A stretch of 64,000 bases of DNA, taken from positions 7,113 through 71,112 of the forward strand of contig JBAQFO010000012.1 in the NCBI GenBank assembly GCA_049287305.1. Direction: 5' to 3'. Below, piece after piece: positions 3,393 through 59,229 of the stretch. The notes below the pieces were generated by a model that was given only the letters and a program-made list of their open reading frames with translations, was not told where the DNA came from and searched no databases. A program made the translations under genes and the position numbers. Numbering within the stretch: position 1 is the stretch's first letter; every line of letters starts with the position of its first letter. The stretch is from Minisyncoccia bacterium (GTDB lineage: Bacteria > Patescibacteriota > Minisyncoccia > Phycocordibacterales > UBA9973).

Positions 3393-5420
3393 TTATAGAT
3401 ATATTGTTTTTATCCCGCTGTCTTCACCTTCTTTTTCCAATAAATCAGCGGGGAGGTCGCTCAGAAACTCGGATGGAGCATTTATATTACGTGAACCGAA
3501 AATAGTGCGGAAGTTGGCAAACGATAAAAATAATTTTTCTTTGGCTCGGGTGAGAGCGACATAGAAAAGTCGGCGCTCCTCTTCCCTGTCTTCTCCACTT
3601 TGTCCCTCATTTTGTCTTTGGTGTGGGAAGAGTCCGTCTTCAAGTCCGGTAATAAAAACATGCTTGAACTCCAACCCCTTGGACGCGTGCACTGTCATCA
3701 ACTTTACCGCACTTACTTCTTTTTTCTTGTCATCGTTTATTATCAAGCTGTCTTGGTCCGAGGCGAGCGAGGCGTCTTCCAAAAGTTTTTCTATCCCTGT
3801 GCCGTCTTCTAGGGCATCGTATTTGAGTGCCAGGGTGGCAAGCTCCTTTATGTTTTCAAGTCTTTCTGTTTCTTCTTCGCTTCCGTTTGCGAGCTCTTGC
3901 TCAATGCCAGACTTTTTCACCACAAATTTTATTACTTCGCTTGTTTTGGAATTTTGTATTTTTTCTTTTATTTCTTCAAGGACTTGGAAGAAAGTGTCAA
4001 TTTTCACCCTTACTTTAATGGGGAGGGTTTCTTTTTGTCCGGCAAATAGCTTTGTCAGAGTCACCTTGCCTATTCCGCGAGTGGGGAAATTTATAATTCT
4101 TTTTATATCTGATAAGTTGTCAGGGTTTAAGGCCGCGCGCAGATAAGCAAGAGTGTCTTTTATTTCTTTTCTTTCAAAAAACTTAATACCCAAAACTTGA
4201 TAAGGGATGTTATAGCGAAGCATGGCTTCTTCGAGCGCGCGAGATTGGAAATTCGCTCGATACAGAACCGCCATCTCCGACAAAACCAGTCCGGCAGTGC
4301 TTTTGCTCAGGTCCTCGGTTCTCCGGGTCCCTATCCCGGCCAGACCATTCTCAAAAGCAGCGCCGGACTGGTCAAGCACCCCCAAAATTTTTGTCGCCAC
4401 AAAATCCGCTTCGTCGGTTTCGTCCAGCGCCTCGTAAAGTCCTATTTTTTCACCAACAGCGTTGTCGGTGAATAAATTTTTGTCGGGGCGATAAATATTT
4501 TTCTTTATTATTACATTAGCCGCTTCCAGAATGTTTTTTGTTGAACGGTAATTTTGTTCCAGCATTATTATCGTGGCATCGGGATAGTCTTTTTCAAAGC
4601 TTAGAATATTTTTCAAATTAGCTCCGCGCCACGAATATATATTTTGGTCGGCGTCCCCCACCACGCAGATGTTTTTATTGTTTTCGGACAAAAGTTTGGA
4701 CATCAAATACTGCACTTCGTTTGTGTCCTGGTATTCGTCCACGTGGATGTATTCCCATTTTTCCTGATATATTTTTCTAATTTCAGGCTTGTCTTGCAAT
4801 AGTTTTGTAGCCTTTAAAAGCAAATCGTCAAAATCAAGTGCATTTTCTTTCATCTTTCTTTTTTCATACAGATTCCAAACCTGAGACACAATTCTGCCCC
4901 AAGGACTTGCCCCTCCGGCTTCCCTTTCCGCGTAGTCCGCCAAGTGAATGAATTTTCCTTTCTCTCTTGAGATAATACTTTTTATTTTTTTAGGTTCGTA
5001 TTGCTTCGGGTCTACCCCTAATTCTTTCTGGATATCTTTAATGAGCCCGACAGCATCATTTTCGTCCAATATTGTAAAATATTTTGTTAGTCCCAAAATT
5101 CTGGCGTTCTCTTTTATAATAAACACCCCCAAGGAGTGGAAGGTAGATACAAACGGAATTTTATTTTGCCCTTTGGCGTTTTTTTCTATTTCCGCAATCA
5201 CCCGTTCCCGCATTTCTTTGGCGGCTTTATTGGTAAAAGTTACGGCCAGGATTTTTTCGGGAGAAACGCCTTCCTTGATAAGATTTACTATCCTATGAGT
5301 AATTGTTTTAGTCTTTCCGGCTCCCGCGCCCGCAACAATAAGAAGCGGCCCCTTCGTGTGAAGCGCCGCCTGCCGTTGTTCTTTATTTAAACCTCTTAGG
5401 TGTTCTGTGTCCTTGTCCAC
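3393..5420 (-). CDS. uvrD: ATP-dependent DNA helicase UvrD/PcrA family
   Basis: Walker A GAGAGKT close to the N-terminus, 675 aa with the typical UvrD helicase motif order. Confidence 0.9.
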   Translation of the reverse strand: MDKDTEHLRGLNKEQRQAALHTKGPLLIVAGAGAGKTKTITHRIVNLIKEGVSPEKILAVTFTNKAAKEMRERVIAEIEKNAKGQNKIPFVSTFHSLGVFIIKENARILGLTKYFTILDENDAVGLIKDIQKELGVDPKQYEPKKIKSIISREKGKFIHLADYAEREAGGASPWGRIVSQVWNLYEKRKMKENALDFDDLLLKATKLLQDKPEIRKIYQEKWEYIHVDEYQDTNEVQYLMSKLLSENNKNICVVGDADQNIYSWRGANLKNILSFEKDYPDATIIMLEQNYRSTKNILEAANVIIKKNIYRPDKNLFTDNAVGEKIGLYEALDETDEADFVATKILGVLDQSGAAFENGLAGIGTRRTEDLSKSTAGLVLSEMAVLYRANFQSRALEEAMLRYNIPYQVLGIKFFERKEIKDTLAYLRAALNPDNLSDIKRIINFPTRGIGKVTLTKLFAGQKETLPIKVRVKIDTFFQVLEEIKEKIQNSKTSEVIKFVVKKSGIEQELANGSEEETERLENIKELATLALKYDALEDGTGIEKLLEDASLASDQDSLIINDDKKKEVSAVKLMTVHASKGLEFKHVFITGLEDGLFPHQRQNEGQSGEDREEERRLFYVALTRAKEKLFLSFANFRTIFGSRNINAPSEFLSDLPADLLEKEGEDSGIKTIYL

Positions 5421-7795: not shown

Positions 7796-9376
7796 TCACT
7801 TCTTGAAACGCGCCTTTGCTTCGGAGCGCGCGTCCTCGAACACCTGCGAGAAGAATTGACGTGACGACGGTGAAACCGTCACGTGGAACGTTCTGCTCCC
7901 CGTCACCTCCTCTATGAAGCTTAGGTATCCATAGTGCTCGAGGTCTTCCAGGATGAATGTCAGGCACCTCCGCTCTCCTTTCGGGAGGTAGAGATATGAA
8001 ACATCGAAGACTTGGCCACTCGTGTGCGTAGGAAATGCCGTCCGAGCGTTGACGATTTTTCCCTTCTTGAGTAGCTCCTGATACTCAAGGTGTCTGACGA
8101 GAGAAGTCACGTCCAACGGCACGAACTCCTCTTTCGGGTAGAGCTTCACGTGCAGGCGGCGGGTTTCAAACGCCACGGTCAGCAGCGCTCCATGGGCAGC
8201 CGGAGAGTTCTGGAGGTAAAGTTCTTGATTCTCCAGGTCCTTTTCGGCGATTGGCCCATTTCCCGAAGTCCGAAGCTTGAAGCCGAAGTAATCCGGCTCT
8301 TCGAACAAGGGCTCAAGCCCTTTTCCGCCACCGTCGCGCGGGTTTAGGTCACGAAGGTTTTTGTAAATCAAGTCCTTCTTGGTGAGCCAGAACCACATGC
8401 GGCTGGGAACCTCGCCCTTTACGTTGACGTTTTCCCTGTATCTCCGGGCCAGCTTTTTGAATTTAGCTGGTTCGGTCTGGTAAAGGTCGAAGAGCTCTGC
8501 GGCTGCGACGACGCGGAACCAATAAGTCGGAGACCAATCCCTTCCCATGTGATAGCGAATCTTGTGATAGATTTTGCTATTAAATGAGGGGTGGTTGAGG
8601 AAGAAAAGCCTCGGCATTGTAACTGGTTCGCCGAAGGCCTTCTTGCCAAGAGAGACCATCTCTTTGACGCACCCTCTTCCACAGTGGAAAGCAAACACCG
8701 CCAGGTCTTCCCCGCCGAGGTCCGCCTCCAACCGTTTCAGGTAATGCGCCGCCGCGAAGATCGACTTCTTGGCGTTGAGCCTGTCGTCTTTCACCACGAC
8801 GGTGTAAGAGACAGTTCTCCACCCGGTTGCCACCTTGCGCCGCTTCTTTCCCTTCCCTTTGTATTTCCATCCTTTGGGAACTTTTTTCTTGCGAACCTCC
8901 TTATTTACCAATCCCGCATCCACCCCTGTGCCTTCGGTGAACTGCATGACTCCGCGAGGACCGGTCGGGCTTTTCGCCCTTGGGTCTCCGCAGCTTTCAA
9001 TCCAAGCCATACCTTGCAGCATGGTCTGGGAGAAACCGCTCTCACGAGCAGCTTCTCTGAAAATCGGCTGAAGAGCATTAATACGTTCGGCGCATTGCAC
9101 AGCGACCGGGCTGCGCAATATTCCAAACTTCTGCTCTTCTACCACCCTCTCTGTTCGCTCAGAGAGAGCGGTTTCCGACATGTTTTCCCGTCCTACGCCA
9201 ACCGAAAGCTGGTGTTTGGGGACGAAAAACGACGGTTTTGTAAGCGCGTTTGTCGTTGCCGTGCCCAGCGTCCGCTGGAACATGACGAAAAGAGTGATGA
9301 GGCCGGTTACGAGAAGAACCTCGCACACTGCCAACACCACCCACCACATACGAGGAACCTCTCTGCAGCTTTTCAT
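7796..9376 (-). CDS. Membrane-anchored lytic transglycosylase (SLT domain) protein, GC-rich gene
   Basis: N-terminal TM segment, then SLT catalytic signature GMAWIESCGDPRAKSPTGPRGVMQFT. GC content is visibly higher than the flanking genes, and the gene has its own terminator. Confidence 0.8.
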   Translation of the reverse strand: MKSCREVPRMWWVVLAVCEVLLVTGLITLFVMFQRTLGTATTNALTKPSFFVPKHQLSVGVGRENMSETALSERTERVVEEQKFGILRSPVAVQCAERINALQPIFREAARESGFSQTMLQGMAWIESCGDPRAKSPTGPRGVMQFTEGTGVDAGLVNKEVRKKKVPKGWKYKGKGKKRRKVATGWRTVSYTVVVKDDRLNAKKSIFAAAHYLKRLEADLGGEDLAVFAFHCGRGCVKEMVSLGKKAFGEPVTMPRLFFLNHPSFNSKIYHKIRYHMGRDWSPTYWFRVVAAAELFDLYQTEPAKFKKLARRYRENVNVKGEVPSRMWFWLTKKDLIYKNLRDLNPRDGGGKGLEPLFEEPDYFGFKLRTSGNGPIAEKDLENQELYLQNSPAAHGALLTVAFETRRLHVKLYPKEEFVPLDVTSLVRHLEYQELLKKGKIVNARTAFPTHTSGQVFDVSYLYLPKGERRCLTFILEDLEHYGYLSFIEEVTGSRTFHVTVSPSSRQFFSQVFEDARSEAKARFKK

Positions 9377-9895
9377 TTCAGTCTTTCCTTATCTGTGTAT
9401 TTTTCCGTTAGCTGTAAGCCCAAAAGGCCATTTCTTGGGTTTACAGCTAACTTTATTTTCAAGGTAGATTCTTGCGCATTATACACCTTTTAGCCTTATT
9501 TGTCAATAAGCTGGTTTTATTAAAATTGAGTGTAAAATACCCCTTTTTTATCCAACTATAGGTAAGTTTCCGAAAAAGGTGTTAAGTTTTTATTAAAATA
9601 TACACTTTTCAGAAAAAATAGGTTTTCCACATATCTCCCCTTTTAGGTTGACTTGAGGCTTTTCATTGGCTACCCTATAGGTATAGTTCTGATTAGGGGT
9701 CCGGTGCTAGCTGTCCGAATGATAGAGTTGATAGTAATAATCGTGAGAACCTTTGTGAGCAGTGCTATAGGTCGTGCTGTAATTCTACCTTATATTAATT
9801 AACTTAATTGGTAGAATAAGGAAATCTCGCGGTAATTTGTTTAGTTTATTAAACCTCAATTTAAAATATTAAGATCTTCCATTGCCTTTTTCCTC

Positions 9896-10909
9896 TTGTT
9901 CGGGGTCCTTTTTTTCCCCCTCATGGTGGAAGCGGGATTCTTTTCTTATTTGGCTGGAGAAAGCGCCAACGCCCAGGTTGTTCCCGCGGTAGCGCAAAAT
10001 AACAGCAACTCTCAGGTAGCCTTTGCTCTTGAACCTATGGCTACATTTGGGTCAGAAAAGAACGACATGCCAGGCGAGGTTGTTATTTCTGACAATGCCC
10101 TTCATGCCCACATTGGCCCGCTCGGCTCCGGCTCGGCGGGCATTTCTAGTGGAGGAACAGGGTCCGGTGACTTCTCTTTTGATGAAATAAGCTTTTACGA
10201 AGTGAGAAAGGGAGACACCTTGGCGCAGGTAGCCGAACTCTTTGATGTTTCCGAAGACACCATTCTTTCCGCCAACGACATGAAGAAGGGCGACAAGCTA
10301 AAGGTGGGTGAAGTCCTTCTTATTCTTCCTTTCTCGGGAGTGGAATACACCGTGGTTAAAGGAGATACTCCGCAAGGTATAGCCAACAAGCACAAGGTGA
10401 GCTTGAATGACATTTTAATACACAATGACATAGACTTGGATTCTCCGCTTTCTATCGGAGACAAGCTTATGATACCGGGAGCAAGTTTGCCGAGCGAGAC
10501 TAAACCAAAAAACGGGGCGGGCAACGTGGCCAAAGGAAAAGGGTCTTCATCAATGCCAAGCATTGTCGGCTTCTTTAAGAATCCTATTTCCGGAGGTAGA
10601 AAATCAAGAGGCGTAACCTCTACCCATAAAGGGGTTGATATCGCGGCTCCAATAGGCACACCTATTTATGCTTCAGCCGGAGGAAAAGTTTTGACCGCGA
10701 AAATGGGGTGGAACGGAGCTTTCGGAAACATGGTAATCTTGCAACACGAAAACGGTACTAAAACTCTTTACGCCCACATGTCAAAACTTGGCACTACAAC
10801 CGGCTCCCAAATAAACCAAGGAGATGTGATCGGATACGTGGGAAACAGCGGACGTTCAACGGGCCCCCATTTGCACTTCGAAGTTTTAGGAGCTAAAAAT
10901 CCTTTCTAG
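9896..10909 (+). CDS. LysM-domain M23 family metallopeptidase (cell-wall hydrolase)
   Basis: Two LysM repeats (VRKGDTLAQVA..., VVKGDTPQGIA...) and the M23 motifs HKGVDIAAP and GPHLHFEV. A signal-peptide-like N-terminus means the true start may be a non-ATG codon slightly upstream. Confidence 0.85.
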   Translation: MFGVLFFPLMVEAGFFSYLAGESANAQVVPAVAQNNSNSQVAFALEPMATFGSEKNDMPGEVVISDNALHAHIGPLGSGSAGISSGGTGSGDFSFDEISFYEVRKGDTLAQVAELFDVSEDTILSANDMKKGDKLKVGEVLLILPFSGVEYTVVKGDTPQGIANKHKVSLNDILIHNDIDLDSPLSIGDKLMIPGASLPSETKPKNGAGNVAKGKGSSSMPSIVGFFKNPISGGRKSRGVTSTHKGVDIAAPIGTPIYASAGGKVLTAKMGWNGAFGNMVILQHENGTKTLYAHMSKLGTTTGSQINQGDVIGYVGNSGRSTGPHLHFEVLGAKNPF

Positions 10910-10939: not shown

Positions 10940-11689
10940 TTACTCCAAGTAAGTTAAAGCTACCATGGCGAAAACTCCTGCCACCACGGCGGCTATTTGT
11001 AGCACTGAGTATGTTACTTTTTTTGTTTTATGAAGTTCCGGGATAAGGTCAGCAACGGCGACGTAAATAAATCCGCCGGCGGCAATCGGCAAAATCCACA
11101 AAGAAAAATTTTCTCCGACGTTACCCAACATTAACGCCACGAAAACACCCAAAAAAGAACAAATAGCTGAAAGAAAATTTAGCCACAGAGCTCGGGTTTT
11201 GGTGTATCCTGAGTGAAGTAAGACGGCAAAGTCCCCTATTTCTTGAGGGATTTCGTGGAGAATAACCGCCACCGTGGTGGCAACCCCCACCGCCGGACTT
11301 ACCAGGAAACTCACGCCGATGATGATACCGTCTATAAAATTGTGCACTCCGTCAGAGAAGAGAATTAATCTTCCTGCCGGATGAATATTGGGCTCGGAAT
11401 GGTCTTCGCCATGATGGTGCCAGTGTAGGAATTTTTCCACTATGAAAAATATTACTACCCCCAGAATTATAAGAATACTTACAGATGCGGAGTTCATCGA
11501 ACTTTCAAAAGCTTCCGGTATCAGATGAATGAATGCATCTCCCAACAAGGCGCCTACGGCCAAAGAAATAAAAATAAAAATATATTTACGCAGAAGTTCT
11601 TCTTTAATGGACAGAGTAAAAACTCCCACAAAAGATACTAAGCTTACTATTGTTACGCTAACCAGGGCGTAGGCGTATGTTATTATCAT
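10940..11689 (-). CDS. zupT: ZIP-family divalent metal (zinc) transporter ZupT-like
   Basis: HWHHHGEDH His-rich loop, HNFIDG and HEIPQEIGDF motifs, 8 TM segments. Confidence 0.85.
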   Translation of the reverse strand: MIITYAYALVSVTIVSLVSFVGVFTLSIKEELLRKYIFIFISLAVGALLGDAFIHLIPEAFESSMNSASVSILIILGVVIFFIVEKFLHWHHHGEDHSEPNIHPAGRLILFSDGVHNFIDGIIIGVSFLVSPAVGVATTVAVILHEIPQEIGDFAVLLHSGYTKTRALWLNFLSAICSFLGVFVALMLGNVGENFSLWILPIAAGGFIYVAVADLIPELHKTKKVTYSVLQIAAVVAGVFAMVALTYLE

Positions 11690-11786
11690 TTGATAATCGT
11701 ATACTAAATAAAACTATTTGCAAAACTTATAAAAAAGCGATGGGCGGGGGTCAGAACGATGATGCCGTTCCGACTACCCCGCCCCT

Positions 11787-11909
11787 TCAGCTGATCCACC
11801 ACAATGCTACCGCGAGGAAGACTATCATGATGGTTGCGAACTGCACGTTGTTGGGAGGGCCTGGTCTTTCCTCCCGCAACTCTGCCCAGTAACGCTCTAG
11901 CAGATTCAT
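11787..11909 (-). CDS. Small single-TM protein (40 aa), GC-rich
   Basis: Own translation: MNLLERYWAELREERPGPPNNVQFATIMIVFLAVALWWIS. SD AAGGAG lies 9 nt upstream, and a GC hairpin (ggcgggg/ccccgcc) plus T-run follows the stop. Not in the ORF track (under 60 aa). Overlapping track ORFs in other frames lack such signals. Confidence 0.35.
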   Translation of the reverse strand: MNLLERYWAELREERPGPPNNVQFATIMIVFLAVALWWIS

Positions 11910-12054
11910 ACGATGGGTCTCCTTCTGCCCCGAATTCTACATATAAAAATTTTTTAGTCAACCAACAGGTTTGGATTAAGTCCGTATAAAAAAACAAGGC
12001 GGGGACGAGGCGATGTTCTGCCTCTTACTCCCCGCCTTGCGGCGATCGTGCGTG

Positions 12055-12204
12055 TTACGAGATCAATGCGATGACGGCGGTCAGGAGCAGTGTTGCTCCG
12101 GTGACCCACCGCAACCAGATTGCCACGTACCACCACGGCTTTTTTTCGGTCTGTTTGACGTCGTCGCCCCAGACCGAAGTGCCTGCCGGTGTCAGAATGG
12201 CCAT
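12055..12204 (-). CDS. Small single-TM protein (49 aa), GC-rich
   Basis: Own translation: MAILTPAGTSVWGDDVKQTEKKPWWYVAIWLRWVTGATLLLTAVIALIS. SD GGAGG lies 6 nt upstream. A perfect 11-bp-stem hairpin (caaggcgggga/tccccgccttg, 11995-12038) followed by TTTTTTT on the minus strand is a classic intrinsic terminator. Confidence 0.4.
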   Translation of the reverse strand: MAILTPAGTSVWGDDVKQTEKKPWWYVAIWLRWVTGATLLLTAVIALIS

Positions 12205-12313
12205 TCGGCACCTCCTTCGTTTTTGATACTACAACTATCTTATAATTAGTCAAATTTATAACTTCAGAGGCTAGAATATTTATCTTCTTTGTGTTAAGAT
12301 AATCCAGTTGAAG

Positions 12314-12384
12314 CGGGCCGTAGTATACCGGTAGTACAAGTGCTTTGGGAGCATTTAGACTGGGTTCAATTCCCAGCGGCCCGA
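12314..12384 (+). tRNA. tRNA-Pro (anticodon TGG)
   Basis: Cloverleaf by hand: acceptor cgggccg/cggcccg, anticodon loop tttggga, T-arm ctggg-ttcaatt-cccag. No encoded CCA. Confidence 0.8.
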
Positions 12385-12388
12385 CATT

Positions 12389-12459
12389 GCGGGATTAGTT
12401 TAATGGTAAAATAACAGTTTTCCAAACTGTGGTTGGGAGTTCGATTCTCCCATCCCGCA
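12389..12459 (+). tRNA. tRNA-Gly (anticodon TCC)
   Basis: Acceptor gcgggat/atcccgc, anticodon stem acagt/actgt with loop tttccaa, T-arm gggag-ttcgatt-ctccc. Sits 4 nt after tRNA-Pro. Confidence 0.85.
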
Positions 12460-12473
12460 CAGAGTAAGGGACA

Positions 12474-12496
12474 AAAAGCAAATTTATTTGCTTTTG
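12474..12496 (+). terminator. Intrinsic terminator after the tRNA-Pro/tRNA-Gly pair
   Basis: aagcaaat-tt-atttgctt hairpin followed by TTTTG. Confidence 0.5.
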
Positions 12497-12568
12497 AGGA
12501 GATTCGAAAGATTTTTTGCTGTAGTGAGCTTGTCGAATCTACCAAAAAATACCTGGCTATGTAATAGC

Positions 12569-12588
12569 CGATTCTCCCATCCCGCACA
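12569..12588 (+). repeat. 20-nt direct repeat of the tRNA-Gly(TCC) 3' end (att-like remnant)
   Basis: cgattctcccatcccgcaca occurs at 12442-12461 (inside the tRNA) and again at 12569-12588, preceded by the small hairpin ggctatgtaatagcc. Confidence 0.6.
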
Positions 12589-12592
12589 ACAT

Positions 12593-13714
12593 TTAAGCAG
12601 CAGCTTTTTTAACTTCTTCAATCGAGTCGCCTTCAGCGACTACTTCCAAATTCTTATTTAATCTTCTAAATTTCCCTCCTTCTTTGCGAGGTTTGAGGAT
12701 GATGTCGTCTGAAACTTTTCCCCCTGTGCTCCAGCTTGAGTGTATACCCCAAGAAACAGATTCTTCAACATAAAAACCCGTTTCATCTTCAAACATAAGT
12801 GTTCCATCTTCTAACAAAATATTGTAGCCGAAGCCTGCTCTTACGACAGCTCGAGTCTTTGTATCATTCGGTACATATTCACCTATTTTGTGTAAAATTA
12901 TTGCATTTTTGTCTAGAATATAAATGTTATTGTCATGTTTTACCATCCATAAATTTCCCACGCTTGGTATTATTGGGTTATCGTATTCCTTAGATAGTTT
13001 CCCTGTTTCTGCGGAGAAAAGTCTATATTTAATGTCACCGAAAAAACCTCCATAAGTCACAATAACCGCGCTATCTTTCCGGACGCTACCTATTGCAGGA
13101 ATTTCTTGTTTAACGACTTCATGCCCCTGCTGATCGACAACAAAGTAACCATCTTGTTTGTTACCGACTATGCTAAAGCGGCCTACCGATTCAAACTTTG
13201 CTCTCATGGCCTCACCTCCCCTATTCTCGTAAATTTCTTTTTGCACAGCTTCTTTAAACTTTTCTTTATCCAAAAATTCTAAATTCGGAAATGTATTATC
13301 TATCTCATAAACTTTTTTACATAAATCAGAAATTGTATTTATGTCGTGCTCCAACAATTCAACGAACTCCTCCTGTGCAATATTAGCTAAAAAAAGCTCA
13401 ACAGCCTGTCGTATTTGGGTTACAAGATCATCGTATTCTTTAAATTTAACTAATTTTTCTGAGCTGTTCTCCTCGTTCTCATGCTTCGCCTGGTAGTTTA
13501 CGACACACTCATCAACTTGAGATAAAAATTGAGGCGCGAGTTCGGCTAACTGTTCTATCTTTTTCCTATTCTGTAATTCTTTTTTTTCTTGTTCTGCTAA
13601 AAAATCAGATCTCGTTACGGGGCCAAAATCAGTCGCACCGCGGATTATCGCTTCCTCTACCTCTTTTATATTCTGGTTACTATTTTCAGTATTCAAAAAG
13701 TTTTCTAAAGGCAT
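12593..13714 (-). CDS. Hypothetical protein
   Basis: 373-aa ORF with an acidic helical N-terminus and a Gly/Trp-containing beta-rich C-terminal half. No recognised motif. Confidence 0.55.
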   Translation of the reverse strand: MPLENFLNTENSNQNIKEVEEAIIRGATDFGPVTRSDFLAEQEKKELQNRKKIEQLAELAPQFLSQVDECVVNYQAKHENEENSSEKLVKFKEYDDLVTQIRQAVELFLANIAQEEFVELLEHDINTISDLCKKVYEIDNTFPNLEFLDKEKFKEAVQKEIYENRGGEAMRAKFESVGRFSIVGNKQDGYFVVDQQGHEVVKQEIPAIGSVRKDSAVIVTYGGFFGDIKYRLFSAETGKLSKEYDNPIIPSVGNLWMVKHDNNIYILDKNAIILHKIGEYVPNDTKTRAVVRAGFGYNILLEDGTLMFEDETGFYVEESVSWGIHSSWSTGGKVSDDIILKPRKEGGKFRRLNKNLEVVAEGDSIEEVKKAAA

Positions 13715-16262: not shown

Positions 16263-16387
16263 TTATCTTTCCCCTATAAATTGAAAAGCACCAGAGAAGC
16301 TGTGCTTTCCTAGTGCTGATATCTCAGGACATTTTCCCTTTTCGGGCGGAGTCCCCTGAGGTGGACCCCGCCCGCGCCCTCGGTTGT

Positions 16388-16549
16388 TCACTTCGTCGCC
16401 GTTGCCGTTGAGGGCGAAGAGGGTGAAACTTCGTGAGCAGTCAAGTTCGAACAGACCTTGACTACCAACAACATGACCACGATAATCCCCATAATGGTGA
16501 GACGCCTGGCACGCACAATTAGGTCTTCCACACTCTCTCCTTTCAACAT
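16388..16549 (-). CDS. Possible small single-TM protein (53 aa) in a GC-rich intergenic patch
   Basis: Own translation: MLKGESVEDLIVRARRLTIMGIIVVMLLVVKVCSNLTAHEVSPSSPSTATATK. GC-rich hairpins downstream. Speculative; the patch could instead be a structured RNA. Confidence 0.25.
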   Translation of the reverse strand: MLKGESVEDLIVRARRLTIMGIIVVMLLVVKVCSNLTAHEVSPSSPSTATATK

Positions 16550-16654
16550 CTATGTAGATTATAGTATATTATATAGAAAATGTCAATATATTTAGTCATA
16601 ATTTTAATCATTATAGTCAACAATTATATAATATATTTAGAAAATGGCTTATTT

Positions 16655-23497: not shown

Positions 23498-23653
23498 ATT
23501 GTCATTCTTGACTTGTTTTTATTAAAATGTTTATAATAGAAACATGGAAAGGAAGGCGCAAAATATGTATATGGCCAACACAAACCCAATAGTTCGGGGT
23601 TGGTTATTGCGTTGCATTTCTTAACTATCTTTAAAAAAATGAAACTCAAAAAA

Positions 23654-23680
23654 ACAGCCCTGAACAGGGCTGTTTTTCGT
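23654..23680 (+). terminator. Intrinsic terminator at the left border of a GC-rich island
   Basis: acagccct-gaac-agggctgt followed by TTTTT. Confidence 0.6.
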
Positions 23681-23729
23681 TCATTGACAACTGAAGAGAG
23701 AGTCTACCCCAAAAAGAAAGGACCTTACC

Positions 23730-24173
23730 ATGAGCAAAATTACCCTTCTGGAGAAGAAGGAAATTATTGCAGTCACGCCGCATGTTCGCTTCGTGGCTTC
23801 CGATTTCTTTCGTGGTTGGCAAGTTGGTTTGAATTTTGAGAATCTGTTCCTTGGTGTTGTTGAAGAAACAGGTGGACAGTCAGTCGAGATTGAATTGCAC
23901 GACCTTTCCGAGTGGTTGGTAAACGGTCCAATCATTGAGGAGTTGGGTGGGGCGTCAAAGACGGGTATCTCTCTGGCGACCTTCGCCGCAATCGCTGCGA
24001 CCGGATGCTCCTTCGTTGCCCACGTTCTTGACGAGGACAGCAAACCCTGGGCAGTTTTCTATCGCCAAGAAGGGGCGCAGCATGTCGCCGGAGCGGATTC
24101 CACCGACTACAAATATTGGTGGTATGGCGGCGGGCGGTTTGCTTCTCCGCATCTCACCCCGTGTATTCTCTGA
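23730..24173 (+). CDS. Hypothetical protein (GC-rich island gene 1)
   Basis: 147-aa ORF with a GC-rich codon profile and an upstream AAGAAAGGA ribosome-binding site. Confidence 0.5.
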   Translation: MSKITLLEKKEIIAVTPHVRFVASDFFRGWQVGLNFENLFLGVVEETGGQSVEIELHDLSEWLVNGPIIEELGGASKTGISLATFAAIAATGCSFVAHVLDEDSKPWAVFYRQEGAQHVAGADSTDYKYWWYGGGRFASPHLTPCIL

Positions 24174-24287
24174 CAATTGGTTTACTAAATAGAAACACAT
24201 GCGTGTAGTTTGTGTGTTCACCTGACTGAGTGTGGGTTTCCTGCACTTTCCATTAACTCCGGTAACGCCAAAAAAGGAGGTGAAAAC

Positions 24288-24497
24288 ATGAACCGCAACA
24301 ACGAAGAGACGTTCGAACTGGAGTGCCGACATCTCGTCCAATTGCTCCGGCAAGAAGAGGGGTTGTCTCTGCAAGATCTGCAGGATCAGGACAACCCTGT
24401 CGCGCTCGAGCTGGTGGAAGACTTCTGTGAAGAGGCTGGAATCTCTCGAGAGTGGTTCGAGGGGTTCGTGGGTCGGATGATTCTAGCGCTCAATTGA
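24288..24497 (+). CDS. Small acidic protein (GC-rich island gene 2), paralog of gene 3
   Basis: Start at the internal ATG, 5 nt after AAGGAGGTG. Product MNRNNEETFELECRHLVQLLRQ...DNPVALELVEDFCEEAGISREWFEGFV. Confidence 0.5.
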   Translation: MNRNNEETFELECRHLVQLLRQEEGLSLQDLQDQDNPVALELVEDFCEEAGISREWFEGFVGRMILALN

Positions 24498-24698
24498 GCG
24501 TACGGGAGAAGCACCGCTTCCGCCGACAACAATCGCACGCCCGCAGACGCGTAGTTTGCTGGGCATTGCAATTGGATATTGGTTTAACCAATATCTTCCA
24601 TCAACCTGGGTTCTGGCTCAGTTCAAACTGAGCTGCAGTGCGAGTCGCTCTAACAAAGCGACTCGCACTGCCCCAAAACTGCGTGAAAGGAGAAGCAG

Positions 24699-25106
24699 AT
24701 GCACAGCAATTCCACCCTCAACATCCTCAACGAGGAAGCCGCCGAGCGAGAGCTCCGAGGGCGACGGACCAGCAAGCAGTGCGAGTCGCTTGAGTGGCAA
24801 TGCCGGCTACTCGCCAACGTGCTCGCCGCCTGCTGCCTGACCATCAGCGAACTCGAGGATGACCCGACCTCAACCGACCGTGTCGCAGAAATTTTCTGCC
24901 ACGACACTGGTCTCGAGCGGGGAGACTTCGATCGTCTCGTTCAGGACGTGCGCGCCACGCTTGCCTCGGCGAGCCGGAAGCTGAGAGATACGTCTCTCAG
25001 GTTCCGCGGGAGTGGAGGTCGGCACCGAAACCTCGACGAGGTTGAGCGTCAGCCCGACCCCCTGGGACGTACTCGGGCTCAGTATGGCTGGTGGCCGAAA
25101 GACTGA
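24699..25106 (+). CDS. Hypothetical protein (GC-rich island gene 3), paralog of gene 2
   Basis: AAAGGAGAAG ribosome-binding site. The segment ...LEWQCRLLANVL...DDPTSTDRVAEIFCHDTGLERGDFDRLV aligns with gene 2. Confidence 0.5.
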   Translation: MHSNSTLNILNEEAAERELRGRRTSKQCESLEWQCRLLANVLAACCLTISELEDDPTSTDRVAEIFCHDTGLERGDFDRLVQDVRATLASASRKLRDTSLRFRGSGGRHRNLDEVERQPDPLGRTRAQYGWWPKD

Positions 25107-25181
25107 GCTGCAGCACGGGTCGTTGGATGACCAGCGATCCGTGCTGCCCCACTACCACTTCAAATGTAAGGGGCACAAGAC

Positions 25182-25448
25182 ATGACACGCAAAGTAGAAA
25201 ACGACAGCGATGCAGAAAGTCTCCACAAGAGGCTCCAGCAGATCAATGGGGTGCGTAAGCAGCACGGAGAAAACGACAAAACCATCGCTGCGCTGACAGA
25301 ATCTCTCTCGCATGACGGTTTCTCGGACGAGGGAGAAGCTTGGAATACACTGGTAGAGTACTATCAAACTCACCGTCGCGTTGAAAAGATTTACGTGGCA
25401 GATCGACCTCTGTTTCCAGACGGCAGAAAGTCGTGGTATCCGCTGTAG
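25182..25448 (+). CDS. Hypothetical protein (GC-rich island gene 4)
   Basis: 88-aa ORF with an upstream AAGGGG ribosome-binding site. Confidence 0.45.
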   Translation: MTRKVENDSDAESLHKRLQQINGVRKQHGENDKTIAALTESLSHDGFSDEGEAWNTLVEYYQTHRRVEKIYVADRPLFPDGRKSWYPL

Positions 25449-25470
25449 AACTACTCAACAATCATCGAAA

Positions 25471-25519
25471 TGACCGTGCGCAAGGTGTACACACCTACGC
25501 ACGGTCATTCTCTTTTTTG
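25471..25519. terminator. Intrinsic terminator at the right border of the GC-rich island (possibly bidirectional with xth)
   Basis: 10-bp stem tgaccgtgcg/cgcacggtca followed by TTCTCTTTTTTG. Confidence 0.65.
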
Positions 25520-58470: not shown

Positions 58471-59229
58471 ATGCGTCGCTTCGTTTTGCTGTTTGTGTTG
58501 TTCTCACTGCTGTCCTCCTCGGTGGAGGCAGCGAGCCGTCGACGGGCCGTGCGGTTTCCGTCTCCGGAACCTGTTGTTCCTCCAGCTCCTGCAGTCACCA
58601 CTGTTCTCACTGTGATCTACGAAGATCCGGATGGGAACGGAGTGACTAATGCATGGGTTGGAGCGCAGACACTTGGTCCGGCTCATAAAGGGGCCAAGTT
58701 TGTCCGGTCGGTCAAGAAACCGGGGGACAACGCGTTCTCTCTGCTCGGCAACACGGTCGTGGAGGCACACCAGGACGGGATGTATCGGACGTTCTGGCTC
58801 TTCTATGGCGAGGAGTTTTACGATCAACTGCCGGATGGCACCAAGCTGCCGTGGCGGCCTGGTATCGCCATCTACAAGGTGGAAGAGACTTCGCCGGAAG
58901 GATTGGTCACGGAGTCCTACACTCAGGTGCAGGTGCCGCTTCGTGCGGAACCGGTTGCCGGGTTTGGGCCGCTTCTCAAAGCTGTTCCCACAGCTGACGG
59001 AAAGCGCATCACTCTGTATGGAGTATTTGCCACCCCGCCAGTGGCCATGCTCTATCACAGAGAGGGTCCGGGGCTCTACCGGAGCCAGGAGGTGAAGGTC
59101 ATCAACAACGAGGTTCAGGTTCCGGAAGGGATGGCGGGGCAGGATTCCCCTCTGGTCGTGTGTGCGGGTTATTCCGCGGCGGATTGCAACACCGTCGAAG
59201 TGGACATCCCGAACCCTCCGAAGTTCTAA
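58471..59229 (+). CDS. Secreted protein encoded in a GC-rich insert
   Basis: GAGGAGGAGG ribosome-binding site, signal peptide MRRFVLLFVLFSLLSSSVEA. Very GC-rich by eye. Confidence 0.6.
   Translation: MRRFVLLFVLFSLLSSSVEAASRRRAVRFPSPEPVVPPAPAVTTVLTVIYEDPDGNGVTNAWVGAQTLGPAHKGAKFVRSVKKPGDNAFSLLGNTVVEAHQDGMYRTFWLFYGEEFYDQLPDGTKLPWRPGIAIYKVEETSPEGLVTESYTQVQVPLRAEPVAGFGPLLKAVPTADGKRITLYGVFATPPVAMLYHREGPGLYRSQEVKVINNEVQVPEGMAGQDSPLVVCAGYSAADCNTVEVDIPNPPKF

Follow-up and report, generated by a model that had tools for sequence, protein, structure and literature searches.

Tandem candidate genes for small single-helix membrane peptides between a ZIP transporter gene and a transfer RNA pair in a Minisyncoccia bacterium

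Results and discussion

Two predicted transcription units between a ZIP gene and a tRNA pair

We examined a stretch of 64,000 nucleotides (hereafter the window) on contig JBAQFO010000012.1 from an uncultured bacterium of the class Minisyncoccia, within the phylum Minisyncoccota, i.e., the Patescibacteria or candidate phyla radiation (CPR), and focused on a tandem pair of putative small-peptide genes. The pair occupies positions 11690-12260 on the minus strand, inside a 624-nt gap between a gene for a ZIP family metal transporter (10940..11689, minus strand) and the plus-strand genes for transfer RNAs (tRNAs) tRNA-Pro(TGG) and tRNA-Gly(TCC) (12314..12460). The ZIP assignment is based on Pfam PF02535 on an identical product, and the same protein, residue for residue, is encoded on contig JBAQNI010000003.1 (assembly GCA_049303715.1). 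We used the ZIP gene as the anchor of this slot; the tRNA pair, which also flanks ZIP in relatives, forms its far border. A first-pass annotation made from the sequence alone had proposed two short minus-strand genes in GC-rich DNA here, each with a Shine–Dalgarno (SD) sequence and an intrinsic terminator. Its sequence claims about the two genes all hold, beginning with two patches of 58–59% GC in a window of 42.5% GC overall.

The upstream unit (unit 2) begins with a predicted promoter at 12226..12253, composed of TTGACT (12253-12248), a 16-nt spacer, and TAGTAT (12231-12226), with TG immediately 5' of the -10 box. The ribosome-binding site (RBS) AGGAGG (12211..12216) lies 6 nt ahead of the ATG of an open reading frame (ORF) of 49 amino acids (aa; 12055..12204, MAILTPAGTSVWGDDVKQTEKKPWWYVAIWLRWVTGATLLLTAVIALIS), which NCBI lists as hypothetical protein WAV15_02465. 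Its terminator (11988..12039) is a hairpin at 12039-11995 with a perfect 11-bp outer stem (CAAGGCGGGGA/TCCCCGCCTTG; -33.2 kcal/mol, z -4.6) followed by seven T residues (11994-11988). The ZIP-proximal unit (unit 1) has a promoter at 11934..11961, made up of TTGACT (11961-11956), a 16-nt spacer, and TAGAAT (11939-11934), with 10 of 12 matches. Its RBS, AAGGAG (11919..11924), is 9 nt ahead of the ATG of an unannotated 40-aa ORF (11787..11909, MNLLERYWAELREERPGPPNNVQFATIMIVFLAVALWWIS). The unit 1 terminator (11731..11792) has a core at 11784-11742 (GGGGCGGGG...CCCCCGCCC), a short outer extension, and six T residues at 11736-11731; its fold (-36.1 kcal/mol, z -5.2) sets in just 2 nt past the stop codon. 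None of 200 shuffled sequences folded as well as either hairpin. Both ORFs, both SD sequences with their spacings, and both hairpins with T-runs are therefore present as the first-pass annotation had written them.

The two promoters, which that annotation had not named, were the only sigma-70-like promoters reported by a scan of both strands of 11500-12700, and they leave leaders of ~15–20 nt in both units. The predicted promoters, RBSs, ORFs, and terminators of the two units are in register. Outside both units, a promoter-like site with a short leader (TTTGCA-17-TACGAT, 11696..11724, minus strand) precedes the ZIP gene.

On the opposite side of the pair, a plus-strand site, GTCAAA-17-TAGAAT, which would serve the tRNA-Pro/tRNA-Gly genes, overlaps the -35 box of unit 2 (12253-12248) in back-to-back orientation, so that the region 12248-12277 would hold divergent promoters using common bases.

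Predicted peptides, competing reading frames, and composition

Each peptide starts with a charged, hydrophilic half of ~23 residues and continues into a single hydrophobic helix that reaches the C-terminus. The maximum mean hydropathy over 17 aa is 2.30 in the 40-mer and 1.99 in the 49-mer, values attained by none and by four, respectively, of 5000 nucleotide shuffles of the coding sequences. Thus the claim that both encode membrane peptides with a charged N-terminal half and a C-terminal transmembrane (TM) helix is borne out, with helices far beyond chance expectation. The C-terminus is aromatic in the 40-mer (LWWIS) and hydrophobic in the 49-mer (VIALIS). The 49-mer contains MAILTPAGTSVWGDDVK, and the 40-mer contains YWAELR and an N-terminal MNLLER. 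The 49-mer carries two lysines beside its helix, on the N-terminal side, suggesting that the N-terminus faces the cytoplasm.

Longer ORFs overlap the same DNA. Those of 97 and 99 aa on the minus strand begin at TTG codons within the terminator or promoter of the upstream unit, and they lack an RBS, a TM segment, and an excess of GC at third codon positions, which agrees with the first-pass view that they are not the genes; they are artefacts of GC-rich DNA. Two plus-strand ORFs, of 71 and 78 aa, likewise have no RBS, hydrophobic segment, or third-position GC excess. Public annotation calls the 49-aa gene hypothetical and, in place of the unit 1 gene, reports the opposite-strand 71-aa ORF (11677-11892, plus strand; 9798-10013 in locus L001), which overlaps the start of ZIP. 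This is probably a false call, an artefact of GC-rich DNA, which would leave the annotation with one gene missing and a spurious ORF where it should stand.

GC content at the first, second, and third codon positions is 0.50/0.50/0.74 in the 49-aa ORF and 0.51/0.41/0.68 in the 40-aa ORF, and the third-position excess is confined to the proposed frames. Core genes of the window have a third-position GC content (GC3) of 0.33–0.50. The coding bodies of the small peptides, at 0.62–0.74, resemble other orphan genes of the window; genes of comparable composition are found at 23730-25448 (four genes, no Pfam match), at 58471-59229 (no Pfam match), and at 7796-9376 (GC-rich, SLT-domain). The first-pass annotation had offered foreign DNA fragments as an alternative explanation of the patches. 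In part this stands, as the coding composition looks foreign and fits a foreign or accessory gene pool. However, the patches are not inert: the bodies sit inside AT-rich signals conserved in relatives, and eight other genomes carry comparable ORFs. Because such bodies are still GC-rich in diverged relatives, they are not recent inert debris.

The first of these comparison regions forms a GC-rich island on the plus strand (23650-25500, 0.51–0.63 GC) with four small orphan genes of 147, 69, 135, and 88 aa, two of which are preceded by a repeated motif, ACTGAGCTGCAG-hairpin-CTGCCCCA.

Neither peptide resembles a known family. A word-indexed search of 5.8 billion clustered proteins returned the 49-mer itself alone and no match to the 40-mer, and a full HMMER search of 1.84 billion representatives with the 49-mer added a single spurious Trp-rich repeat protein. 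Nothing significant was found for either peptide in Pfam, NCBIfam, PHROGs, or PADLOC (E up to 1–10 for Pfam, NCBIfam, and PADLOC). Rfam at the gathering score recovered only the four tRNAs of the window, and at E up to 10 its sole match within 11600-12320 was a chance hit to mir-335, so the region matches no known structured noncoding RNA (ncRNA) in that database. A mobile-element origin was considered and dropped, with no DNA match in 50,697 phage records; viral contigs contained neither relatives of the 49-mer nor the conserved promoter-leader motif described below. We found nothing specific in the literature on small membrane peptides in Patescibacteria or CPR.

The slot in related genomes

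ZIP-anchored loci were collected from one genome per species and from metagenomes, and 82 loci were used for blastn and tblastn. Searched with the region and with the peptides, they gave short promoter-level matches and no counterparts. Units in relatives were instead located by reading the DNA upstream of ZIP, and module detection settled on composition plus TM criteria and on a promoter motif. A finder demanding promoter, RBS, and terminator proved too strict, and one that masked long ORFs was led astray by spurious ones in GC-rich DNA.

Units of the same design were found directly 5' of ZIP, on the same strand and beside the same tRNAs, in eight related genomes (loci L003, L004, L012, L083, L086, L089/L090, L153/L165, and L163/L164; ZIP 66–80% identical to that of the window). 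Even the best ZIP relatives are just 80% identical, with synonymous sites saturated. The signals that enclose the small ORFs are nonetheless homologous between the slots: a promoter TTGACa/t-N16-TGTAGTAT, a leader and RBS AAAAAyGAAAGGAGG, a terminator GGGGCGGG...CCCGCCCC-TTTT, and, after the terminator, a separate ZIP promoter TTTTGCAAA...TATACGAT. The unit 2 promoter of the window is homologous to the slot promoters of L090, L086, L153/L165, L163, L003, L083, and L004, and its leader (CAAAAACGAAGGAGG) is kept in L090, L086, and L153. The unit 1 promoter and the L004 slot promoter share 88% identity over 26 nt, and the 3' arm and tail of the unit 1 terminator (CCCGCCCATCGCTTTTT) are common to L090. 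The ZIP promoter sequence TTTTGCAAAnnGTTTTTATTTAnTATACGAT is kept in L003, L086, L153, L083, L090, and L005.

The L090 unit matches the 5' end of window unit 2 (promoter and leader) and the terminator of window unit 1. Both window units carry the conserved slot promoter, and the arrangement in the window therefore looks like a duplicated unit. When the shared signals were condensed into a search motif (TTGACx-N13-16-TGTAGnnT-N3-25-RGGAG), it occurred 12 times in the 1.44 Mb of the window and fetched loci, each time as a slot unit followed by a small ORF; L012 is the only locus whose slot unit does not match.

Two features were noted beside these units. In L003, a transposase-like gene pair (217-1174, integrase-core type, with an N-run in the assembly) lies 5' of the slot promoter in the position of the tRNAs. 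Between the last small ORF and the terminator hairpin, an SD-like AGGAGGTGAT/AGGAGGTG is conserved in L083 (about 430-460), L163 (6185-6200), and L165 (6205-6225); no convincing ORF follows it, and it could be the remnant of a lost ORF or a regulatory element.

Coding evidence and selection

Across ten units from eight genomes we counted 13 RBS-led small ORFs of 21–62 aa, each genome having between one and three. A 17-aa segment with a mean hydropathy of at least 1.8 is encoded in the RBS-defined frame of 11 of them, and the other five frames of the same DNA reach this value in 0, 0, 0, 2, and 0 cases. GC3 (0.55–0.81) exceeds GC at the other two codon positions in 12 of the 13. The comparative frame evidence thus backs the proposal that two short genes on the minus strand encode single-TM peptides. 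The first-pass annotation had named conservation of the reading frames in relatives as a check, and the answer was divided: relatives do not keep the peptide sequence, but they do keep an RBS-led frame that encodes a TM segment.

The slot peptides are otherwise mostly unrelated, with global identities typically of 10–25%. By segment-wise shuffling, the 49-mer and the 40-mer share no similarity beyond composition (p = 0.64), neither is significantly similar to the peptides of L090 or L012, and the 49-mer is marginally similar to the L004 peptide (p = 0.04). The first peptide of L086 (L086a) and the second of L165 (L165b) are related (p = 0.0005). A profile search returned proteins P0002 and P0003, the latter (from L163) being the orthologue of the L003 peptide.

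The L003/L163 pair allows an estimate of selection from nonsynonymous (dN) and synonymous (dS) divergence. Over the 40 codons of helix and tail, dN is 0.089, dS is 0.34, and dN/dS is 0.26, indicating purifying selection on the membrane segment of such peptides; over the 14 N-terminal codons, dN is 0.95. The ZIP genes of the same loci (247 codons) have a dN of 0.036, a dS of 0.80, and a dN/dS of 0.045. Peptides of this type thus evolve several-fold faster than a core membrane protein. Their synonymous sites seem constrained, as the proportion of synonymous differences (pS) is 0.28 in the peptide versus 0.49 in ZIP, although these are small numbers.

Turnover of slot content

The content of the slot does not follow ZIP divergence. 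L163 and L165 are the closest pair (ZIP dS 0.51, 92.8% aa identity), yet they carry one and three ORFs, respectively, with 21% identity between the ORFs nearest to ZIP. Although L003 and L163 lie farther apart (ZIP dS 0.80), their peptides are 69% identical. In L086 (ZIP dS 0.75 to L003, 94.7% aa identity) two ORFs are present, and the first of them is related to the second, truncated one of L165. Peptide sequence and ORF number therefore turn over faster than the synonymous sites of ZIP. At dS values of 0.5–0.8, cassette replacement and very fast divergence with insertions and deletions are not separable.

In a neighbor-joining (NJ) tree of ZIP, the window, L003, L004, L083, L086, L163, and L165 form a unit-bearing clade that also includes L084, which has no unit; L090 and L012 carry units and fall elsewhere. 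The units are thus dispensable and lineage-restricted, with gain, loss, and duplication, and probably replacement. Where they are absent (L084 and more distant relatives), tRNA-Gly abuts the ATG of ZIP.

The start of ZIP lies 0–2 nt past the 3' end of tRNA-Gly in L084 (4999-5003), L087, L095, L096, L103, L006, L014, and L016. This suggests a co-transcript of tRNA and messenger RNA (mRNA) in these relatives, from which tRNA processing would release a leaderless ZIP mRNA.

A third unit at 16.4–16.6 kb

The first-pass annotation had pointed to a third similar candidate in another GC-rich patch. We consider this unit (16344..16586, minus strand) real, with two amendments: translation more likely starts at GTG 16531 than at ATG 16549, and its hairpin has no T-run. 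A predicted promoter of TTGACA (16586-16581), a 17-nt spacer, and TATAAT (16563-16558) is followed by the RBS AGGAG (16541-16537), 5 nt ahead of the GTG, by a 47-aa ORF (16531-16388, MEDLIVRARRLTIMGIIVVMLLVVKVCSNLTAHEVSPSSPSTATATK), and by a GC hairpin at 16373-16344. The peptide has a central helix and then a Ser/Pro/Thr-rich tail, a layout like that of the peptides of L003, L163, and L086 with a TM segment followed by a Pro/Thr tail. Homology to the peptides of L003, L086, and L165 was considered and set aside, as only weak alignment of peptides with a TM segment and a Pro/Thr tail was obtained. The unit is not adjacent to ZIP and has no downstream gene, and none of 11 relatives has a counterpart 3' of the gene for the CCA-adding enzyme.

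Accessory membrane peptides as the favored explanation

With somewhat better than even confidence, we propose that the slot contains two genes for small membrane peptides of tail-anchor-like layout, both strongly expressed and each terminated independently, and that it is a fast-turnover accessory slot of this clade of Patescibacteria. That the ORFs represent real, translated small membrane proteins is, on sequence grounds, highly probable. For an accessory or regulatory role rather than a toxic one we would give about even chances, and regulatory membrane peptides are the most reasonable class for the pair. A specific functional link to the ZIP transporter appears unlikely; adjacency of the units to ZIP is conserved in nine genomes and could be inherited synteny.

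Under this proposal, each unit would comprise a strong sigma-70-type promoter, a short leader, a near-perfect RBS, the ORF, and its own intrinsic terminator, and the second promoter-to-terminator copy in the window probably arose by duplication. The peptides would be produced at a high level, inserted into the cytoplasmic membrane after translation, and serve as dispensable accessory or modulatory components of the envelope. Selection would act on membrane anchoring and a short flanking segment, not on a specific fold. The terminator would stop the strong upstream promoter from driving ZIP, which has a promoter of its own.

MgrB, MgtS, AcrZ, KdpF, and CydX are known accessory or regulatory small membrane proteins. 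Like the window peptides, members of this class are 30–60 aa long, with one TM helix, no cleavable signal, and a strong RBS, and they are often stand-alone, missed by annotation, lineage-restricted, and fast evolving. Unlike them, the window peptides have no homology to any of the five, their coding bodies are far GC-richer than the genome, and ORFs in the slot are replaced between close relatives while promoter and terminator persist. Orphan proteins of this class are already known and common, and nothing at this locus overturns current ideas. Small single-pass bacterial membrane proteins have been reviewed (PMC10730256, PMC10723866).

The architecture of conserved signals around variable cargo is the one feature that might repay more work. 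The contrast between conserved signals and hypervariable, GC-rich bodies, together with their lower synonymous divergence, is worth understanding if it proves general. The conserved promoter-RBS motif lets such genes be found even though the peptides are unsearchable. Patescibacteria have tiny genomes and probably a symbiotic cell biology, and a fast-turnover peptide locus offers a cheap entry to their envelope biology.

Several considerations weigh against the proposal. We infer transcription and translation of both units from sequence signals, and we arrive at the accessory or modulatory class by exclusion. For neither window peptide was a homologue detected, and the evidence for selection derives from an analogous peptide of other genomes. 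The loci compared are metagenome contigs and metagenome-assembled genomes (MAGs), and the phylogeny of ZIP was a simple NJ reconstruction. Recently imported DNA would likewise account for the high GC and GC3 of the coding bodies, and rapid turnover is expected of near-neutral, barely functional ORFs as well.

Alternative explanations

This last point leads to an alternative that we regard as unlikely, in which GC-rich DNA, imported or arisen de novo between a resident promoter and terminator, encodes near-neutral hydrophobic ORFs with little or no function. The unit would then matter at most as a transcribed spacer or insulator 5' of ZIP. Such a view would accommodate the orphan status of both window peptides, a turnover of ORF number and sequence exceeding that of neighboring synonymous sites, the lack of a unit in L084, the resemblance of L165b to a truncated L086a, and an atypical composition shared with other GC-rich orphan genes of the window. 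It is difficult to reconcile with an RBS-led TM frame in 11 of 13 ORFs and almost none in the other five frames, since randomly translated GC-rich DNA seldom gives such helices. The dN/dS of the L003/L163 helix and tail and a synonymous divergence below that of ZIP also speak against it, and a GC3 of 0.7–0.8 is not expected to persist neutrally in a genome of 42% GC.

Hok, Ldr, Fst, TisB, Ibs, ZorO, and BsrG are type I toxin families, and the first-pass annotation had likened the pair to small membrane toxins. If these were type I toxin-antitoxin-like loci, the peptides would damage membranes and be held down by an antisense or overlapping small RNA, with the tandem as a typical duplication. 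According to Fozo et al. (2010, PMC2887945), hallmarks of such toxins are a length below 70 aa, a single TM region, a C-terminus that is polar or aromatic, intergenic copies arranged in tandem, and a small RNA transcribed antisense. The window pair shares the size, the single TM helix, the tandem position in one intergenic region, poor conservation, a history of being missed or mis-called by annotation, and, in the 40-mer, an aromatic C-terminus (WWIS). The antisense partner is where the resemblance fails: no opposite-strand promoter scoring at least 9 of 12 is predicted anywhere in the locus (11500-12700), the check that the first-pass annotation had suggested, and a relaxed scan gave only 8-of-12 sites at the start of ZIP or belonging to the tRNA pair. 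Known type I toxin mRNAs have long, structured leaders, in contrast to the ~15–20 nt here. Although the minimum-free-energy fold of unit 2 pairs the RBS with codons 8–10, the probability of an unpaired RBS (0.49–0.60 in the window units) equals that of codon-shuffled controls and shows no trend across the 10 units, i.e., the RBS is accessible. Moreover, the tandem peptides are dissimilar to each other, and the search for toxin families in Pfam, NCBIfam, and PADLOC gave no match. A toxin is therefore possible but unsupported, since neither an antisense promoter nor RBS occlusion was found and the leaders are short, and we judge it improbable.

We attach a smaller probability still to exchangeable cassettes under diversifying selection, whereby recombination would swap unrelated genes for small membrane or surface peptides into an expression slot. 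Conflict, whether with phages or with the cell that hosts these episymbionts, would drive the swapping, e.g., through exclusion, immunity, or contact peptides. Slot content incongruent with ZIP divergence, homology that stops right past the leader and returns at the terminator tail, foreign-like composition, and an N-terminal segment that evolves fastest are all in keeping with exchange. The slot also borders tRNA genes bearing an insert flanked by a tRNA 3'-end repeat, a mark of site-specific integration nearby. However, the units themselves are flanked by neither a recombinase nor a pair of repeats, hairpins number one per transcription unit and not one per ORF (three ORFs and one hairpin in L165), phage and viral collections and defense families returned no match, and at a ZIP dS of 0.5–0.8 fast ordinary divergence with gain and loss could explain much. 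In integron arrays, a resident promoter drives exchangeable ORFs, each followed by a hairpin-forming attC site. The slot resembles them in its conserved promoter, variable small ORFs of foreign composition, GC-rich hairpin, and varying ORF number. It differs in that the genes called within 10 kb on either side include no integrase (attC core motifs were not examined), that its hairpin is a T-run terminator occurring once per transcription unit, and that each window unit has its own promoter. It is similarly doubtful, if a little less so, that the tRNA–ZIP slot is a dedicated expression site, with a strong conserved promoter, a leader, and a terminator around unrelated, repeatedly exchanged GC-rich peptide genes, and a diversification hotspot for peptides in conflict or contact with phages or the episymbionts' host cell; the window would hold two loaded copies of it.

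Finally, we consider it very improbable that the GC-rich bodies act as a structured ncRNA, or that ORF translation sets read-through into ZIP in the manner of a leader-peptide attenuator: GC-rich islands in AT-rich genomes are often structured RNAs, the folds of the whole transcripts are more stable than those of shuffled sequences (z -3.2 and -5.2), the unit 1 hairpin starts 2 nt past the stop codon, and promoter, short ORF, and terminator hairpin do lie directly 5' of a same-strand structural gene, but the whole-transcript z values (-3.2, -5.2, and -1.8) are largely due to the terminators, Rfam gives no relevant match even at E = 10, the RNA sequence is unconserved among relatives while the RBS-ORF-TM layout is conserved, the hairpin follows the stop codon by anything from 2 to about 50 nt depending on the genome, no alternative pairing that could act as an antiterminator was found, a conserved promoter belonging to ZIP itself lies 3' of the terminator, and the similar unit 3 stands alone without a downstream gene.

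Other features of the window and its relatives

Immediately after tRNA-Gly, the plus strand of the window (12461-12590) contains a conserved insert of ~110 nt that closes with 18 nt repeated from the tRNA 3' end (GATTCTCCCATCCCGCAC). The insert (core CCTGGCTATGTAATAGCC) also follows tRNA-Gly in L083 (122-250), and in L084/L085 (about 4757-4887) it instead follows tRNA-Pro and repeats that tRNA's own 3' end. It has no Rfam match at the gathering score and resembles a miniature element integrating at tRNA 3' ends, with one copy in the window.

Two further observations concern the DNA 5' of ZIP in other genomes. A Nomurabacteria MAG (L007, 3150-3500) has a GC-rich, hairpin-dense, noncoding stretch there that is unlike the units and may be a structured RNA. 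No Fur/Zur-like regulator gene is found near the window ZIP; in the more distant relatives L008, L009, L011, and L093, such a gene lies ~500 nt 5' of ZIP, and its promoter holds a palindromic site, AACGCAAC-N4-GTTGCATT.

Elsewhere in the window, the plus strand at 23507-23680 carries a mini-unit composed of TTGACT-17-TATAAT, AAGGAAGG, an 18-aa ORF (MYMANTNPIVRGWLLRCIS), and a hairpin plus T-run. This mini-unit is neither GC-rich nor TM-encoding, and it may represent a small RNA or a leader peptide.

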